In this document: piece after piece, positions 25,272-31,643 of the stretch
Numbering within the stretch: the first letter of the stretch is position 1
How the letters are laid out: every line of letters begins with the position of its first letter
Source of the DNA: an uncultured Gammaproteobacteria bacterium
GTDB lineage: Bacteria > Patescibacteriota > Microgenomatia > UBA8517
Length of the DNA: 58,243 nucleotides
Direction of reading: 5' to 3'
Assembly (NCBI GenBank): GCA_964600575.1
Contig: CAZRJH010000006.1
Span: 1 to 58,243, forward strand
Notes under the pieces: generated by a model
The model's database searches: none
Seen by the model: only the letters and a program-made list of their open reading frames with translations
Told to the model about the DNA's origin: nothing
Made by a program: the position numbers and the translations under genes

Positions 25272-25305
25272 GCTTCGCCACCGCTTCGTGATATAATCCC
25301 CCCTT

Positions 25306-26076
25306 ATGGAAAGGTTTTTGTCCGAAAACAAGGAAAAAAATGGAGATCATGCCGCATTTAGTATGGCGATTGCCGCAGTGCAAGGAAGCTGGAACAAAGG
25401 AACTAGGCAGGTTTTACTCAGCAATGTTCGAGAGCAGGTGGGGTTGTTTCCAGAAAACGGAAGTATAGTGGAAACTGCAATTTTAGGCGTTGTTGAAAAG
25501 TTGACCGAGAGCTTGATTGGAGAGGGTAGTATGGCTAGTGTCCTGTTCAAAAAATCGATAATGTTACCCGCACACGACCGCGGTCTTATATTGGCGGGTC
25601 ACATTTTTGGAATTTTGGGTAGTGAGGCTGCTCACGATTGGGAAACAGCAACTTTACTAAATCAAAGTATGGTTTCGGGCGTAAGCTTTGAAACTACTAT
25701 CCAAAATCTTAAAAAAGGTTTTGAAAAGTTTAACTCCGGTATTTTGGGTTTACTGGCAAAATTTTCCGATCACGCTGATAAATCTGATGACGAAGCAAAT
25801 GGAGAGGGGATAATTAATCATCTTAGAGGTATTTACGGAGGAAGTAGAGAAGGGCTTGTGCAAAACAAAATTAATCTTGAGAAAGTTATTCTTGAAGATT
25901 TGGATAAAAAGTTGGGCAGTAAAAGTGCTGCAGATTTGCAACTTGTTTTGGACCGGCTGAACATGTCAACCGACGATGCTGTTCTTAGAGAATCCGTTGA
26001 AAGCGCTAAAAAAATTATTAAAGACTCCTTAAAAAGAAAGTCGGAAAGTTTAAACTCACTTCTTGAAACTATTTAA
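25306..26076 (+). CDS. Hypothetical soluble protein (256 aa)
   Basis: ORF only. An extended -10 TGATATAAT (25289-25297) lies 8 nt upstream of the ATG. Confidence 0.45.
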   Translation: MERFLSENKEKNGDHAAFSMAIAAVQGSWNKGTRQVLLSNVREQVGLFPENGSIVETAILGVVEKLTESLIGEGSMASVLFKKSIMLPAHDRGLILAGHIFGILGSEAAHDWETATLLNQSMVSGVSFETTIQNLKKGFEKFNSGILGLLAKFSDHADKSDDEANGEGIINHLRGIYGGSREGLVQNKINLEKVILEDLDKKLGSKSAADLQLVLDRLNMSTDDAVLRESVESAKKIIKDSLKRKSESLNSLLETI

Positions 26077-26107
26077 ACTTCGGGTGATAATCTTAATGTA
26101 ATCGATT

Positions 26108-26129
26108 CATATTCGTATAAGCGAATATG
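26108..26129. promoter_or_regulatory. Perfect 8-bp inverted repeat CATATTCG-N6-CGAATATG (candidate operator) upstream of the metal-locus mini-ORFs
   Basis: Arms at 26108-26115 and 26122-26129. No following T-run, so it is unlikely to be a terminator. Confidence 0.4.
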
Positions 26130-26175
26130 TTAATCTAATATATGTGCTACAGCGAAGCTAAGCACAACTAAAACT

Positions 26176-26340
26176 ATGTGCTACAACTGCGGTTGCGATA
26201 ACCCCGACGATAATATGGGTAATGCTGATAACATTACCAGCATTACATTTGAAAAGGCTGCTAAAGCTTGGGGGCAAACCAAAGAAGATGCTATGAGTAA
26301 TACCCTCAAGCTCCTAATTAAAAAACTTAAAGTCAAATGA
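26176..26340 (+). CDS. Unannotated 54-aa Cys-rich mini-protein (MCYNCGCDNPDDNMGNADNITS...)
   Basis: My own translation; the ORF is below the track's size cut-off. Its TGA overlaps the ATG of the next gene (ATGA at 26337-26340). It is preceded by a 9-codon ORF (26142-26171) that also begins MCY. Confidence 0.5.
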   Translation: MCYNCGCDNPDDNMGNADNITSITFEKAAKAWGQTKEDAMSNTLKLLIKKLKVK

Positions 26341-27836
26341 AAGAACTAAAGGCAAATGTTAGGTTTTGGATAATGTCTGCATCCATCCTGTTTTCGTTAC
26401 TAGTCTTTTTGTATGTTAACTTCACAATTCCAATACTAAGCTCAAAGATTAATAGACTCACGGAGGTTTACGCTTTAACGGCCTTATTTTTTCTTTACAT
26501 TACACTGCTTGCGACACCTCTTACTCGATATTTTCCAATGCTTCCGTATAGAGGTGAATATATTAAAGCAAGAAGGGCACTTGGGGTATCTGCGTGTTAT
26601 TTTGCACTCTTGCATGCTTCATCCGCCTTCTTTTTTAATTTGGGGGGATTCGCCGGATTGAGCTTTTTGAGTAATAAATACATTGTTGCACTTAGCTTGT
26701 CGTTTACGGCACTTTTGATACTACTGATTTTGGCGGCAACTGCTAACGACAAAGCGATAGAAAAACTAGGATTTGCGAGATGGAAGGCTATACATAGACT
26801 TGTGTATCTAGCGGGAATTTTGACACTTATTCATGCTGTAATGCTTGGGACACATTTTGCAGTGCTTTCCAGCTTGATACCAAAAATCGTATTTAGTGCG
26901 ACTGCATTTTTGTTAATACTCGAAGCTAGACGTTTTGATGAATGGGTTTCTTCAAAGTTCTCGGGCCTCCCGAATTTTGGAATAACGGGAGTTTTGGTTA
27001 TAAGCAGTGTGTTATATTTTCTTTCGGGTTACGTTTACGACAGTGACGGGTCGGGTTTTGGTATTCATTCAAAACACATAATCCAAGCAAGAAAAGACAT
27101 AGCAAGCGGCGTTAAACTTGGAGTCTCATTTAGCCCTTTGGAGGGCATTGTTCCAGCCAGAAAACAAAGATTGATGTTCAGGGTATTCAATGAATCGACG
27201 GGTGAAACTATTAAAAAGTTTGCATTAAATCAGGAAAAAATAATGCATGTGATTATAGTCGGCGAAGACTTTAATTTTTTTGATCACATACATCCGGAGT
27301 TTAAAGACGATTCCTTTTTTATTGATTATGCATTTCCAAAAGAAGGTAAATATAGAGTTTATGCAGACTACGTTCCCGAAGGAATGGGGGAGCAATACAG
27401 AGCTTTCCAGGTTAAAGTTGGAACAAAAGATGTTGCCAGCACATTTAATGTTGTAGAAAACGATACTGCAAGTAATGGTATATATGTCTCAAAATTAACA
27501 TCTGCCGATAAACTTAAAGCCAAAGATATTTCTGCCGGAAAACAGCTTTTGAGTATGAATGTTACCGACAGCCGTGGAAACCCTGTCGAGAACATAGAAA
27601 CATATTTGGCGGCATTTGGACACATGGTAATGATTAATACTTCTACTTATGAATATGTACATGTGCACCCTAAGCAATCGTATGTTCCTTATGAAGGTGA
27701 AACATCCGGCCCGTTAGTTGAGTTTTCGCCGCTCGGAATTTATAGTAACATCAAGCCTGGAGTTTATAAGCTCTATGTTCAGTTTAAAATTGACGGAAAA
27801 ATCAATGTCTTTGACTATTTTGTTCGAATAAATTAA
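26337..27836 (+). CDS. Ferric-reductase/MsrQ(YedZ)-like heme-b membrane domain fused to two HxHP-motif beta-rich repeats
   Basis: RRALGVSACYFALLHA and WKAIHRLVYLAGILTLIHAVM, with two His 13 residues apart on one helix. The C-terminal repeats are IMHVIIVGEDFNFFDHIHPE and FGHMVMINTSTYEYVHVHPK. Confidence 0.6.
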   Translation: MKELKANVRFWIMSASILFSLLVFLYVNFTIPILSSKINRLTEVYALTALFFLYITLLATPLTRYFPMLPYRGEYIKARRALGVSACYFALLHASSAFFFNLGGFAGLSFLSNKYIVALSLSFTALLILLILAATANDKAIEKLGFARWKAIHRLVYLAGILTLIHAVMLGTHFAVLSSLIPKIVFSATAFLLILEARRFDEWVSSKFSGLPNFGITGVLVISSVLYFLSGYVYDSDGSGFGIHSKHIIQARKDIASGVKLGVSFSPLEGIVPARKQRLMFRVFNESTGETIKKFALNQEKIMHVIIVGEDFNFFDHIHPEFKDDSFFIDYAFPKEGKYRVYADYVPEGMGEQYRAFQVKVGTKDVASTFNVVENDTASNGIYVSKLTSADKLKAKDISAGKQLLSMNVTDSRGNPVENIETYLAAFGHMVMINTSTYEYVHVHPKQSYVPYEGETSGPLVEFSPLGIYSNIKPGVYKLYVQFKIDGKINVFDYFVRIN

Positions 27837-28396
27837 TGAAAGCCAAACTTTTTTTTGCTGTATTTTTATTACTTTTTTCTGTGTTTACTCTGCCGGTTAG
27901 TGCCCATGTATTAAAAACAGATGGTGACATTGGCGCGGTTTTACATGTTAATCCTGACGATGATCCTGTTGTTGGTGAAGAAACAAACTTTTTCTTTGAA
28001 TTTAAAGACAGGAAAAACAAATTTGCTCCAGTTAATTGTAATTGTATAGTATCGATTGCAGATAGCGGGGGGAAAGATGTTTTTACCGGAAATCTTTTTG
28101 AGAATGATTCTAACCCCAGCCTTGAAAGTGCTAGTTTTGGTTTTGTTTTCCCTAAAAAAGACATCTATAAGATTACAGTAAGCGGGGCTCCGAAAGTTGA
28201 AGGACAATTCCAAAGTTTTAAATTGAGCTATGACCTACGAGTTGCTAAGGTATCTAGCCAAAAGAATAATGCTGAGGAAACCAAACCTGAAAACGATCAA
28301 AACAAGCTGATTTACATATTGGTATCCGCTATTCTTGTTGGAGGTGTTTATGTGTGGATAAAGCGAAGTAATTCATCTGATGTTGGAAAATCATAA
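27836..28396 (+). CDS. Secreted, C-terminally anchored protein with predicted N-terminal His after signal cleavage (VSA|HVLK)
   Basis: Signal peptide MKAKLFFAVFLLLFSVFTLPVSA, a beta-rich body and a C-terminal TM LIYILVSAILVGGVYVWI. TAATG overlap with the upstream gene. Confidence 0.55.
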   Translation: MKAKLFFAVFLLLFSVFTLPVSAHVLKTDGDIGAVLHVNPDDDPVVGEETNFFFEFKDRKNKFAPVNCNCIVSIADSGGKDVFTGNLFENDSNPSLESASFGFVFPKKDIYKITVSGAPKVEGQFQSFKLSYDLRVAKVSSQKNNAEETKPENDQNKLIYILVSAILVGGVYVWIKRSNSSDVGKS

Positions 28397-28769
28397 TACT
28401 CACTTTGGTTTCTATGTTTTGATTCTTCAAATCTTTACACTCGTCTTTGGCTTTGTAATTTTAAAAAAATATAAACGTTATATTCTTGCTTTATTATTTT
28501 TTCTGGCGGTAGGAGTGCTTGTGTGGCCGTCCCGTTTGTTGTTAGCACACAAACATCTGATGGCGTCCAACACATCTTCTGATCATCCGTGTTGCCAAGT
28601 GTCCACAGTTACCGAAGCAAAAAACTTTGTAGTAGATAAGCCTGTAGTTTCGGTAGATATTTTTAATATTACTAATGAAACCAGTTTTTTTATAACACCT
28701 TATTTCCGGGCTGGTATTAGAGGTCCTCCCTCCTTGCTTTTGAAGTATTTAACCACACAGTCTGTTTAG
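28380..28769 (+). CDS. Small two-TM protein with HPCC motif
   Basis: Overlaps the upstream gene by 17 nt. Contains HKHLMASNTSSDHPCCQ after the TM helices. Confidence 0.4.
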   Translation: MLENHNTHFGFYVLILQIFTLVFGFVILKKYKRYILALLFFLAVGVLVWPSRLLLAHKHLMASNTSSDHPCCQVSTVTEAKNFVVDKPVVSVDIFNITNETSFFITPYFRAGIRGPPSLLLKYLTTQSV

Positions 28770-28790
28770 ATTAGAGAGGGGGTGATAATT

Positions 28791-29426
28791 ATGAGGAAAA
28801 CAATAACAATATTATTATTTGTAGCGCTTTTAGTTTTGGGTACCAAGAATGCATTTGCTCATGCTGCAGTGAAACCCGCACAGGTGGGTATTGGTATAAC
28901 ACAAACTTTTACAGTTGGTGTTCCAAATGAACGAGAGGTTGCCACAACCGGCCTTAGGCTGGTTGTTCCTGAGGGATTGGAACATACGACACCAAATGTT
29001 AAACAGGGTTGGAGAATTGCAACCAAAAGCCAACCTGTAACGGTAGATATGGAGGGAGAGCACCCGCCCGTTACGGAAATAATTTGGAGCGGTGGTGTAA
29101 TACCCGAGGGTCAAAGAGAAGAGTTTGTCTTTAGTGCCAAGGTTCCCGCTTCCGAGACTAAGTTGGTTTGGAAGTTTTACCAAACCTACGCCGACGGAAA
29201 AACAGTTGCTTGGGAGCTTGCTCCCGGTTCTGAACAACCAAAAGATGCAGAAGGTAAACCTGATTACTCATCTGTTGGTCCGGCATCGGTAACCGATGTA
29301 GTTAACGATCTTAAGACTGATCCACAACCTGAAAAGGCTGTCGAAAAGTCTAGAGATTATGTTGCCTATATCGCATTGGCCATCTCTGCAATTTCTTTGG
29401 GAATGCAGTTTGCCAAAAAGAAGTAA
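28791..29426 (+). CDS. ycnI: YcnI/DUF1775-family copper-binding protein with C-terminal TM anchor
   Basis: AFA|HAAVKPAQV...FTVGVPNERE...LRLVVPEG matches the DUF1775 pattern. Strong SD GAGAGGGGGTGA lies upstream of ATG 28791. Confidence 0.8.
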   Translation: MRKTITILLFVALLVLGTKNAFAHAAVKPAQVGIGITQTFTVGVPNEREVATTGLRLVVPEGLEHTTPNVKQGWRIATKSQPVTVDMEGEHPPVTEIIWSGGVIPEGQREEFVFSAKVPASETKLVWKFYQTYADGKTVAWELAPGSEQPKDAEGKPDYSSVGPASVTDVVNDLKTDPQPEKAVEKSRDYVAYIALAISAISLGMQFAKKK

Positions 29427-29518: not shown

Positions 29519-30436
29519 ATGAGTAAAATCGAATCCGAAAAACTTTTTGCCAAGAAGATTTTGTTGGTTTTTGGACTTTTAGGGCTTGGTGTGGGTGGCA
29601 TGTTTTTGGGGATGAAATTGCCCGATTTATGGTCTCAGATTCAAACTACTTTTTTGGCCAGCAAAAATCAGAAAGAAGAAGCAAAGTTTAAAAAGATAGA
29701 AGCTAAGGTTGTACCACAAGAAGGATTTAGTATTCCCGTATCCTGGGGAGATGTGGGACCAAAATTAATTGAATTGGGTGTAATTGATCAGGAGAAATTT
29801 GAACAAGCAGTTTCTCTTACGGATGAGCAAAAGAATATTCTTACAAAAGGTAGCACTGAAAGTATAAAGATAAATGCTGATAATAGTCAGTTTGTTGTCG
29901 ATCTTTTGTGGGCTTTAGGGCTTGCGCAAAAGTCTTTGGTATACGACGAAGGGCCATTGGGGACGGATTATAAAGCCGAACGGGGTGATTTTGCATCAAC
30001 CGGGGGGTGGACTTTAGCAAAAGGTGACCCTTTAAAATATTTGAACAAATACGATCTTATTCCTTTGACTGCCGCACAACAGGGGAGGGTTGCCGAAATT
30101 GCTAAAAATATATACAGGCCTTGCTGCGGAAACTCAACTTGGTTCCCTGACTGCAACCACGGTATGGCCATGCTTGCTGCTATCGAGTTAATGGTTTCTA
30201 AGGATATGAGTGATGATGATATATATAAAAACGCGCTTAAACTTAATTCGTTCTGGTTTTCTAACAGCTATCTTAGTGTTGCGGTTTATTTTGATAGGCA
30301 AGGCATTCCTTGGGAAAAAATTGATGCCAAAAAAGTTTTGGGTAATGAGTATTCTTCCGCCTCGGGAAATTCCGACATTTCTAATAAAGTAGGGCCTCTT
30401 CCCGGACAATCGTTTGGGGGTAGCTGTGGAGCTTAA
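29519..30436 (+). CDS. Membrane-anchored orphan protein with YRPCCGNSTWFPDCNHGMA motif
   Basis: One N-terminal TM (ILLVFGLLGLGVGGMFLG), then a soluble domain with a C-C-x9-C-x-H cluster. I chose ATG 29519 because the track's 29462 start lies inside the terminator. Confidence 0.5.
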   Translation: MSKIESEKLFAKKILLVFGLLGLGVGGMFLGMKLPDLWSQIQTTFLASKNQKEEAKFKKIEAKVVPQEGFSIPVSWGDVGPKLIELGVIDQEKFEQAVSLTDEQKNILTKGSTESIKINADNSQFVVDLLWALGLAQKSLVYDEGPLGTDYKAERGDFASTGGWTLAKGDPLKYLNKYDLIPLTAAQQGRVAEIAKNIYRPCCGNSTWFPDCNHGMAMLAAIELMVSKDMSDDDIYKNALKLNSFWFSNSYLSVAVYFDRQGIPWEKIDAKKVLGNEYSSASGNSDISNKVGPLPGQSFGGSCGA

Positions 30437-30624
30437 CTAAGAGAGAAACCCGACGCTTTTACTATCTCCTCCACCTTTTTTTGATCGGATTTTTTATCTA
30501 CCTCCAAAGTTTCTTTGTTGTAACTGCACTTGGCGGCGATACCAGCATCTTCCAGATCCATCACCAGGAGTGATGCGCAGCTGGCACAATCCATACCATT
30601 TATCTTGTATGTTTTTTTGTCCAT
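30433..30624 (-). CDS. copZ: Copper chaperone CopZ-like HMA-domain protein
   Basis: YKINGMDCASCASL (GMxCxxC), 63 aa. Confidence 0.85.
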   Translation of the reverse strand: MDKKTYKINGMDCASCASLLVMDLEDAGIAAKCSYNKETLEVDKKSDQKKVEEIVKASGFSLS

Positions 30625-30625
30625 A

Positions 30626-31609
30626 TTACTTAACTACATTAAAGTAACCCGTGTACATACCCATACTACATGTATATGTCAAAATTCCAGTTGTTGTCGG
30701 GGTAAACTCTATCACTGTCTCTCCGGTTACGGGAAGAATTTTTGATATTCCTAAATTCGGTATAACGAAAGCTCTTGCACAACTTAAGACATTGTTTGAG
30801 ACAAGAGTTAGCTTAACAGGGACTCCAACCTTTAAGGTATTTGTGTCGGCCTTATAACCTTTGGCAAAAACATCTATTTTTACGAGTTGGTAACCGTTTT
30901 CTATGTTTATTTTTCCTGACACAATGTTGCTACCTGCAATTACACTCCAATAGTTCTGAAGAGTGTGAACCGATCCCCTTAGAATTTGACCCGAGTTAAT
31001 AGATAGAACCCCTATGTAAAGTATTATGGTTGCGGCGACGGCAGTAAGGATTTTGTTTTTGAAAACTTCTGTTGAAACAACTCCGAATAAGAAAAATATA
31101 GGAAATGTTCCTAAGACAAAAGCAAACATTGTAAGTGCGCCGTTGAGAACGGAACCCGAACCTATTGCGTAAATCATCATGGCTTGAGTTACGCCGCAGG
31201 GGATAAGTACAGTGAGAAATCCGAGAAGAATGGGGGCGAAATTGGATGTATCTTTTGAAACTTTCGAAAGAATGCGCATGAATTTAACGGGCGGTTGGAG
31301 AACTGTATATCTAAAGATGGGATGAATGTTTAAAAGTCTGGCTGCAGTTGCAACCATAAAAAGTCCTACTGCAATTTGTAACCACCCTTGAACTTTTGGA
31401 GCAACAACAAAACTTGCACCAAATAGTCCCAAAAAACCTCCCAATAATGTGTAAGCAACAAGTTTAGCTATAAGAAAAAGAAGTGTAGTTTTTATTTTAT
31501 TTTTACCCGAGTCGGCAATGGTTGCCGCCAAAAGGCCGCCCTGTACTGCAATACAAGAAATACCGCCGCTTGTAAGTCCCGTTAAAAAAGCCAGTAAGAA
31601 AGTATTCAT
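30626..31609 (-). CDS. Polytopic permease (DsbD_2/TauE-like) fused to a C-terminal cupredoxin-like domain
   Basis: GLTSGGISCIAVQGGLL plus about 6 TM helices. The C-terminus VPVKLTLVSNNVLSCARAFVIPNLGI...LTYTCSMGMYTGYFNV is paralogous to 31918-32277. ATG 31609 is preferred over TTG 31618. Confidence 0.65.
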   Translation of the reverse strand: MNTFLLAFLTGLTSGGISCIAVQGGLLAATIADSGKNKIKTTLLFLIAKLVAYTLLGGFLGLFGASFVVAPKVQGWLQIAVGLFMVATAARLLNIHPIFRYTVLQPPVKFMRILSKVSKDTSNFAPILLGFLTVLIPCGVTQAMMIYAIGSGSVLNGALTMFAFVLGTFPIFFLFGVVSTEVFKNKILTAVAATIILYIGVLSINSGQILRGSVHTLQNYWSVIAGSNIVSGKINIENGYQLVKIDVFAKGYKADTNTLKVGVPVKLTLVSNNVLSCARAFVIPNLGISKILPVTGETVIEFTPTTTGILTYTCSMGMYTGYFNVVK

Positions 31610-31611
31610 TC

Positions 31612-31643
31612 TTGACAACCCCCCTGGGGGGGATTAATATAAT
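31612..31643 (+). promoter_or_regulatory. Divergent copper-operon promoter with CsoR-type operator (TTGACA - ACCCCCCTGGGGGGGA - TATAAT)
   Basis: TTGACA at 31612-31617, G/C palindrome C6-T-G7 at 31619-31632, and TATAAT at 31638-31643. Confidence 0.6.

Follow-up and report, generated by a model that had tools for sequence, protein, structure and literature searches.

A 58,243-nt contig of an uncultured Patescibacteriota bacterium (CAZRJH010000006.1, here called the window and analysed over its full length) contains, immediately ahead of a gene for a 499-amino-acid (aa) membrane protein, an open reading frame (ORF) of only 54 codons that opens with MCYNCGC. Is so short an ORF a gene, and what could a protein with three cysteines in its first seven residues be doing there? 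Judged by its conservation, the ORF is a real gene. The reading we favor, at a probability of roughly 0.55, is that this mini-gene encodes a small cytosolic metalloprotein with a HypB-type hook and, as its partners, FNR-type reductases and redox proteins of the membrane; the window's copy would be translated together with the Ferric_reduct protein, in an operon of copper type.

The mini-gene and its family

The mini-gene and its parts are located as follows.

26176..26340, + strand: mini-gene for a 54-aa protein, stop included; putative N-terminal metal hook, then helical hairpin
26176..26220, + strand: codons 1-15, hook M-C-[YF]-N-C-G-C-x2-P-[DN][DN]-D-[MH]-G, from alignment conservation and HypB_prefix_1 matches
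26179-81, 26188-90, 26194-96 and 26215-17, + strand: codons of the hook residues Cys2, Cys5, Cys7 and Met14
26239..26328, + strand: codons 22-51, two predicted helices with a conserved G-x-[ST] turn between them (WGQT in the window's copy), from AlphaFold2 (AF2) models
26337..26340, + strand: ATGA, overlap of the mini-gene stop with the start of the 499-aa gene (ATG 26337-26339), from the sequence

The frame running from ATG 26176-26178 to TGA 26338-26340 translates to MCYNCGCDNPDDNMGNADNITSITFEKAAKAWGQTKEDAMSNTLKLLIKKLKVK (54 aa, opening MCYNCGC). The initial annotation had described this ORF and the ATGA that its stop shares with the 499-aa gene; both were confirmed at the same coordinates. 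From the overlap we infer that translation is coupled from the mini-gene to the 499-aa gene. In a relative of the same genus (G001) the junction is TAATG, an overlap of 1 nt versus 4 nt in the window. Upstream of 26176 the frame offers no other start codon. Over 26117-26700, 0 differences were seen in a contig from a second public sample (run X2, record 6); the arrangement is therefore not a product of assembly in a single sample. Shine-Dalgarno cores (GGAG/GAGG) preceded only three of the 50 long ORFs in the window, and their lack is therefore not evidence against translation of the mini-gene.

A search of 61 related genomes with the mini-protein matched 15 of them at E ≤ 1. There were 14 full-length matches in 13 of the 61, the window's own genome included, so that the gene is intact in 12 other relatives. 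The window's genome also carries a paralogue (G000:C1:61828-62007). Between the mini-gene and its G001 orthologue, synonymous sites were saturated (pS 0.78) and replacement sites conserved (pN 0.14). Because intact orthologues exist, pS far exceeds pN, and the stop/start overlap is kept within the genus, we take the ORF as real. The initial annotation had proposed looking for homologues in other genomes and for codon-level conservation, and the gene passed on both counts. In G001, where the downstream gene is kept, the mini-gene is intact and abuts the orthologue of the 499-aa gene.

Beyond these relatives, the family pattern was scanned for in one genome per GTDB species; of 221 hits, tblastn confirmed 213, and the best 80 of the 213 loci were examined. 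Their titles included Patescibacteria-type records (Candidatus Daviesbacteria, Amesbacteria, Woesebacteria, Levyibacteriota, Roizmanbacteria) as well as Blastocatellia and other Acidobacteriota, Binatia, Deferrimicrobium, ‘delta proteobacterium’ metagenome-assembled genomes (MAGs), Actinomycetota, Verrucomicrobiia, Armatimonadota and Bacillota. Among 1.84 billion representative proteins, a profile search recovered 429 clusters with E ≤ 1e-3, of which 119 reached E ≤ 1e-10. Of 98 loci fetched, 94 had an intact ORF of 46-70 codons with an ATG directly before the first Cys codon, the other four being weak, unrelated matches. The 94 loci include at least two pairs fetched twice from the same place (L002/L019 and L003/L038). 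For L019, which matches G001, and L038, which matches G051, gene content and place among the relatives point to small Patescibacteria-like genomes, and their record titles (‘uncultured Gammaproteobacteria bacterium’) seem to be default labels.

Neither Pfam nor NCBIfam had a family for the window's protein, and the ESM Atlas returned only ‘hypothetical protein’ clusters. On viral contigs, the family pattern gave 39 hits, 0 of which were relatives by tblastn. Longer fused forms were not found either, which is weak evidence. Literature searches returned nothing on MCYNCGC proteins; papers on CxxCxC or CX2CXC dealt with metallothioneins, SoxR and anamorsin, and the family was not found among them, while papers on the HypB CXXCGC motif named no stand-alone proteins in title or abstract. 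The hook is thus known; a widespread stand-alone family bearing it on a predicted helical hairpin, beside FNR-like genes and in genomes where no hydrogenase was found among those searched, is absent from the databases and literature searched.

The hook and the predicted helical hairpin

In an alignment of 57 diverse members, M1, C2, C5 and C7 were invariant, and G6 and G15 were at least 90% conserved. The larger set was chosen with the regular expression MC..C.C, which fixes those four positions by construction. Its consensus was M-C-[YF]-N-C-G-C-x2-P-[DN]-[DN]-D-[MH]-G, followed by N-I-T (n = 219). Position 13 was D or N. Of 180 members, 147 had Met and 25 had His at position 14, and 176 had no Cys beyond Cys7. 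The family is acidic, with a median isoelectric point (pI) of 5.3 and a pI below 7 in 74% of members.

When the 57 members were scanned singly, the commonest NCBIfam match was HypB_prefix_1 (NF053667; 31 members, best E 9.8e-5), with HypB_prefix_2 and full HypB matching four members each. The HypB_prefix_1 alignments covered protein residues 1 to ~25 and profile positions 1-18 of 72, and the G001 orthologue matched at E 0.076. The window's copy has Cys2, Cys5, Gly6 and Cys7 of the HypB-type motif, and in all 94 loci the ATG stands directly before the Cys2 codon. The N-terminal CxxCGC of HypB binds Ni(II) at an affinity in the picomolar range, in a site that is diamagnetic and square-planar, the ligands being the amine of the N-terminus and three thiolates, those of Cys2, Cys5 and Cys7; a Zn(II)-bound form of the peptide also exists (PMC12284835). 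The strict N-terminal placement, the Cys spacing and the Gly6 of the family fit this site. The N-terminal C-x2-C-x-C had been annotated initially as a metal-binding peptide, a suggestion that the comparison supports and sharpens to a candidate HypB-type CxxCGC hook.

Met1 is usually removed when the second residue is small, and we assume its removal here. The exposed Cys2-x-x-Cys5-Gly6-Cys7 hook would then hold its metal as the HypB extension holds Ni(II), in a square plane formed by the free N-terminal amine and three thiolates, and Met/His14 with the acidic run before it would probably complete or tune the site. Metal binding is what we infer from this, and the identity of the metal likewise: the precedent of the motif would make it nickel, and the local operon together with the Cys/Met/His ligand set suggests copper.

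The resemblance to the HypB extension is confined to Met1-Cys2-x-x-Cys5-Gly6-Cys7 at the very N-terminus. Unlike HypB, the mini-protein has 54 aa and no GTPase domain, its family has a conserved Met/His at position 14, and no hydrogenase or HypA/HypB was found in those of its hosts that were searched. The HypB extension is disordered, whereas the hook of the mini-protein is predicted to lead into a folded helical hairpin.

AF2 modeled the window's protein with a predicted local distance difference test (pLDDT) score of 91.3, as coil over residues 1-21 and helices over 22-32 and 36-51. The family has two forms, a short one, to which the window's copy belongs, and a long one with a Gly-rich insert. 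In ~20 clusters the helical module is duplicated (85-100 aa, e.g., P0008, P0013 and P0015) with a single hook. For one two-module relative the model (pLDDT 94.0, predicted template modeling score 0.86) had one hook and four helices, with no strand. The single hook of these relatives points to one metal site per hook. The two-helix hairpin would serve as a scaffold, with the two-module relatives forming a four-helix unit. The AF2 results speak to the fold and not to the geometry of the hook. One relative (P0014) has a His-rich C-terminal tail.

Structural comparisons gave no close natural relative. A PDB sequence profile search matched nothing but designed helical repeats (dTor, TRP), by way of the helix-GxT-helix pattern, while Foldseek found nothing in the PDB at E ≤ 1e-3 for the 54-aa or a 94-aa model. 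The best hit of the wide VIA structure search (Z 5.2) was inside the range of common helical arrangements. A complex prediction with two copies and Zn scored 0.36 against a mark of 0.42, with controls at 0.00, and was used as evidence neither way. An N-terminal amine/thiolate Ni-hook on a four-helix bundle is also known from NiSOD, which in this respect resembles the two-module relatives. The hook sequence and ligand set of NiSOD differ, and it was not among the structural matches. A Pfam Sod_Ni search of the window's genome was empty, and uninformative, the control genomes being silent as well; the genome encodes an Fe/Mn SOD.

Neighbouring genes and upstream DNA

Neighbours were called with a simple ORF caller in 1.5-3 kb fetched on each side of the gene. 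The recurrent one was a ~240-aa FNR-like flavoreductase (FAD_binding_6 + NAD_binding_1), present at 31 of the 94 loci and directly upstream, within 120 nt, at 24 of these. Fourteen of the 24 were divergent (Patescibacteria-type) and ten co-directional (Acidobacteriota, Binatia and ‘delta’ records). L011 is a further FNR-adjacent locus, with the neighbour over-extended by the ORF caller. Among the related genomes, a mini copy adjoins an FNR-like gene in 11 of the 13 that bear one, and it is the long form that does so. In the window's own genome, the paralogue lies 24 nt from the single FNR-like match of the genome, at G000:C1:61087-61803, head-to-head. Run X2 also contained, aligned to window positions 26175-26221, a long-form homologue from another organism of the same wastewater sample (record 7), where a divergent gene starts a few bases upstream, as in the FNR-type arrangement.

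Other upstream neighbours were DUF2231 proteins (four loci), Cupredoxin_1 proteins (four loci) and cytochrome b561/FdhI-like proteins (two loci); a Hemerythrin gene followed downstream at three loci. At one of the four DUF2231 loci, in an Acidobacteria MAG (L020:1628-2965), a single 446-aa ORF directly upstream of the mini-gene joins DUF2231 with an FNR NAD-binding domain. This fusion hints that DUF2231, a predicted membrane domain, may be a membrane redox partner.

In the window, the mini-gene heads a tightly packed operon, in the order mini-gene, 499-aa Ferric_reduct/MsrQ-like protein, 186-aa protein, 129-aa protein, YcnI/DUF1775 protein and 324-aa protein. The features around the mini-gene are the following.

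26337..27836, + strand: 499-aa membrane protein, N-terminal Ferric_reduct domain (MsrQ-like, heme-b; PF01794, E 3e-7, residues 49-163), uncharacterised C-terminal part
27836..29426, + strand: downstream operon genes for 186-aa, 129-aa and 214-aa YcnI/DUF1775 proteins (DUF1775, E 1.2e-21)
30433-31618, - strand: HMA protein and DsbD_2-cupredoxin protein just beyond the operon, from profile matches
26142..26171, + strand: 9-codon ORF MCYSEAKHN plus stop, partial tandem duplicate of the gene start, unit 34 nt
26063..26091, + strand: promoter-like site upstream of the operon, TTGAAA, 17 nt, GATAAT; a consensus match only, 1 found versus 1.7 expected

The 499-aa protein matched the NCBIfam MsrQ model at E 3.4e-15, below the cut-off, and the 186-aa and 129-aa proteins matched no family. 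Its only orthologue among the 61 relatives was in G001 (49% identity), where the mini-gene abuts it too. The initial annotation had expected relatives of the mini-protein beside ferric-reductase-like or YcnI genes. This held within the genus of the window; family-wide the neighbour was the FNR-like flavoreductase instead, and the Ferric_reduct linkage is specific to the genus. Positions 26337-29426 together with 30433-31618 (- strand) form a copper-type module of Ferric_reduct, 186-aa and YcnI secreted proteins, HMA, and DsbD_2 with cupredoxin. By eye, the signal peptides of the secreted 186-aa and 214-aa proteins end just before a His.

A known counterpart is MsrQ of E. coli, a Ferric_reduct family protein reported to be reduced by the FNR-like Fre (PMC12525009). 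As with MsrQ and Fre, the window's genome has one heme-b membrane protein without a dehydrogenase domain of its own and one separate FNR-like reductase. Unlike there, the operon of the window carries YcnI-type proteins, and the accessible part of the paper describes no small Cys-hook protein for MsrQ/Fre (PMC12525009). The window's genome thus appears to carry a split NOX/MsrQ-Fre-like pair, with a mini copy for each half: one probably translated with the Ferric_reduct protein at the head of the YcnI (copper-type) operon, the other head-to-head with the FNR-like gene. In G013 (C2:4521-5780, - strand), the Ferric_reduct and FNR-like parts are found in one 436-aa frame, fused as in NOX-like proteins; they are on separate contigs in the genome of the window.

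The nature of the hook also raises the question of hydrogenases. No hydrogenase was found in the window's genome or in the 12 other mini-bearing relatives searched, and PF02492, PF00374 and PF01155 were not found in the former. Among the 61 relatives, a hydrogenase large subunit was present in three (G003, G013 and G054) and full-length cobW-family matches in two (G006 and G017), none of which carries the mini-gene; the mini-bearing G049 and G051 had only short P-loop-level cobW matches. The mini-protein does not serve hydrogenase maturation in the window's genome.

The 9-codon ORF ends with TAA 26169-26171, 4 nt before the mini-gene ATG. The window contains the 10-mer ATGTGCTACA in exactly two places, 26142 and 26176; with one mismatch allowed there were four matches, versus 1.84 expected over the whole window. 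Two exact copies 34 nt apart are therefore not due to chance. The 9-codon ORF is missing in G001. P0001, a protein from an NCBI record of a close relative (89% identical to the window's), has two in-frame 11-codon copies, MCYSKAEHNKT and MCYSEAEHNKT, before MCYNCGC. We therefore regard the upstream element as a variable tandem repeat, made of the first 10 nt of the gene plus 23-24 nt; in the window the repeat copy is out of frame and closed by a stop. The element reads as a decayed, non-conserved partial duplicate of the gene start rather than a conserved leader peptide. The initial annotation had offered a choice between a decayed duplicate start and a leader peptide, and the former fits, with the ORF missing in G001 and repeated in P0001. 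RNA structure over the ORF was not significant (fold z-score -0.11), and a nearby TGTGCT...AGCACA inverted repeat was set aside, this score not lifting it above chance. The repeat unit had 0 matches in the metagenome scan. In two runs, Logan contigs break at 26116-26142, which is compatible with variation there and no demonstration of it.

A 19-nt tandem repeat also spans the junction of the mini-gene and the 499-aa gene (26316-26358; 2.2 copies, 83% match, Tandem Repeats Finder score 58), and the last codons of the mini-gene (KKLKVK, stop) are near-copies of the first codons of the 499-aa gene (MKELKAN). In run X1, one low-depth contig had 1-nt deletions at 26331 and 26333; contigs break at 26335-26351. 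DNA nearly identical to window positions 25300-28400 was present in wastewater and activated-sludge metagenome runs from two studies, one of which runs may be where the window comes from; no RNA run was among those listed. At many long-ORF starts in the window, a TATAAT-like box ends ~8-9 nt upstream of the ATG, a sign that leaderless or very-short-leader mRNAs may be frequent in this genome.

The proposed role and its alternatives

We propose that the mini-protein, with its hook loaded, has as partners reductases of the NAD(P)H-flavin (FNR) type and, in the membrane, heme-b proteins or related redox proteins. Its function might be that of an accessory subunit loaded with metal, of a donor or buffer of metal, or of a mediator for single electrons. 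Several observations weigh against this proposal. All HypB_prefix_1 matches scored 14-18 bits, below the 30-bit cut-off, and the window's own protein had no match to this profile even at E ≤ 10; the resemblance is therefore one of motif, and not membership in the HypB family. The link to HypB is one of a 7-residue motif and its N-terminal position. Met does not serve as a ligand in the HypB site, which makes any role for position 14 a guess. The window's genome (96.7% complete) showed no nickel context in searches for NiFe hydrogenase, cobW/HypB/UreG, HypA, NicO and CbiM, none of which was found. With respect to the partners, 63 of the 94 loci had no FNR gene within the 1.5-3 kb on each side, and downstream genes across the family were heterogeneous. 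Furthermore, 27 related genomes had a full-length FNR-like orthologue, and at 0 of the 16 loci checked was a family member nearby. As the FNR-like orthologue occurs without the mini-gene, the mini-protein is not its obligate partner.

The four-Cys [2Fe-2S] sites of SoxR and anamorsin M1 likewise contain CX2CXC, and on this basis the protein might instead be a small Fe-S electron carrier. CxxCxC with a fourth ligand (Asp12/13 or His14), or two chains, would hold a [2Fe-2S] cluster reduced by the FNR-like neighbour, the two genes making up a split FNR-ferredoxin reductase. The SoxR site is CX2CXCX5C (PMC8063818), and anamorsin M1 is CX8CX2CXC, with a cluster reduced by an NADPH flavoreductase, the diflavin reductase Ndor1 (PMC8251831). 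The best NCBIfam matches of the neighbour, MmoC, Hmp, Hcr-like NADH oxidoreductase and BenC, are all FNR modules, which in those enzymes come joined to a one-electron carrier domain that is absent from the 239-aa FNR-like neighbour; the mini-protein family is also acidic (median pI 5.3), as are many ferredoxins. We nevertheless consider an Fe-S carrier unlikely. SoxR and anamorsin share the C-x2-C-x-C spacing, and SoxR has a Gly before the third Cys, but both have four Cys that are not N-terminal, whereas this family has three, and 176 of 180 members lack a fourth. Position 14 is most often occupied by Met (147 of 180), which is not known as an Fe-S ligand. The strict N-terminal placement and Gly6 match the HypB hook better, and the one hook per four helices predicted for two-module relatives argues against a cluster shared by two chains. 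A SoxR-type CX2CXCX5C site was rejected for the missing Cys after Cys7 (176 of 180) and the D or N at position 13; the SoxR model matched one family member, at E 0.64 and outside the cluster region.

The protein could also be a stand-alone cytosolic buffer or chaperone for Cu or another thiophilic metal, unlinked to electron transfer, with the FNR neighbourhood incidental or regulatory. The setting of the window has features that would suit it: YcnI/DUF1775 in the operon, the HMA and DsbD_2-cupredoxin proteins nearby, and Cys plus Met/His, a usual Cu(I) ligand set. Elsewhere, Cupredoxin_1 is the immediate upstream neighbour at four loci, and the 63 loci without an FNR gene would be accounted for. 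However, the FNR-like adjacency recurs in different phyla and in two gene arrangements, 11 of the 13 mini-bearing related genomes have a copy beside an FNR-like gene, and no copper exporter or regulator was recurrent beside the gene in the examined loci. We regard an unlinked buffer as improbable, to about the degree of the Fe-S carrier.

The 14 divergent loci with very short intergenic spaces have the layout typical of a regulator and its target, and a minimal metal- or redox-sensing DNA-binding regulator would have a ribbon-helix-helix (RHH)-like or helix-turn-helix-like unit, made of the hairpin and the extended segment before it, with the Cys hook sensing metal and the FNR-like gene under its control. 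RHH monomers (PutA, NikR, TacA, AmrZ and others) were among the weak structural matches (Z 3.4-4.1, root-mean-square deviation ~2 Å, 43-44 residues), RHH proteins were also among the weak Foldseek matches, and the G-x-[ST] turn between the helices is RHH-like. Because RHH proteins recurred in this way, membership was tested directly. With hhalign, the family against an alignment of 19 RHH_1 domains from relatives reached a probability of 2.45%, a whole-genome RHH_1 (PF01402) search touched no mini-gene, and only two of the 57 members matched RHH_1 at E ≤ 1. The two-module model has four helices and no strand, and the would-be recognition helix begins with conserved acidic residues, in a family in which 74% of members have a pI below 7. 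Finally, at ten loci the gene follows FNR downstream in the same orientation, and the window's copy is probably linked in translation to a membrane protein. Regulation of this kind is quite unlikely in our view.

Four further candidates were rejected: an HMA/CopZ-type metallochaperone (PF00403), as the model is all-helical, the window's protein had no HMA match at E ≤ 0.1, and the 25 families listed at E ≤ 1 for the 57 members do not include HMA; a metallothionein, with just three Cys in 54 residues and none past Cys7 in 176 of 180 members; a precursor of a ribosomally synthesized and post-translationally modified peptide, because modifying enzymes were not recurrent beside the gene in the examined loci; and a thiol-disulfide (thioredoxin-like) protein, as the motif matches a metal site and FNR-type reductases are not known to reduce disulfides.

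A bolder form of the metalloprotein proposal would make the family a new class of mini redox metalloproteins, with a planar Ni (or Cu) center of N-terminal amine and three thiolates and an axial Met/His14. The center would switch its oxidation state back and forth, and single electrons would pass by way of it from FNR-type flavoreductases that stand alone to heme-b proteins of the membrane (Ferric_reduct, cytochrome b561) or to DUF2231 proteins. We consider this a long shot. If true, such a carrier would stand in for ferredoxin in bacteria that have no hydrogenase and are poor in Fe-S, Patescibacteria among them.

The CxxCGC hook of HypB is among the tightest natural nickel sites known and has so far been discussed within hydrogenase maturation. 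The same hook motif now heads a widespread family of stand-alone proteins of ~55 residues, nameless in the databases, which lends itself readily to expression and spectroscopy. Should the hook bind metal, the family would represent either metal buffers or donors of a new kind or, for FNR/NOX-like systems, a small redox partner that is new. In streamlined genomes, ORFs of fewer than 60 codons at the head of operons can be conserved subunits.

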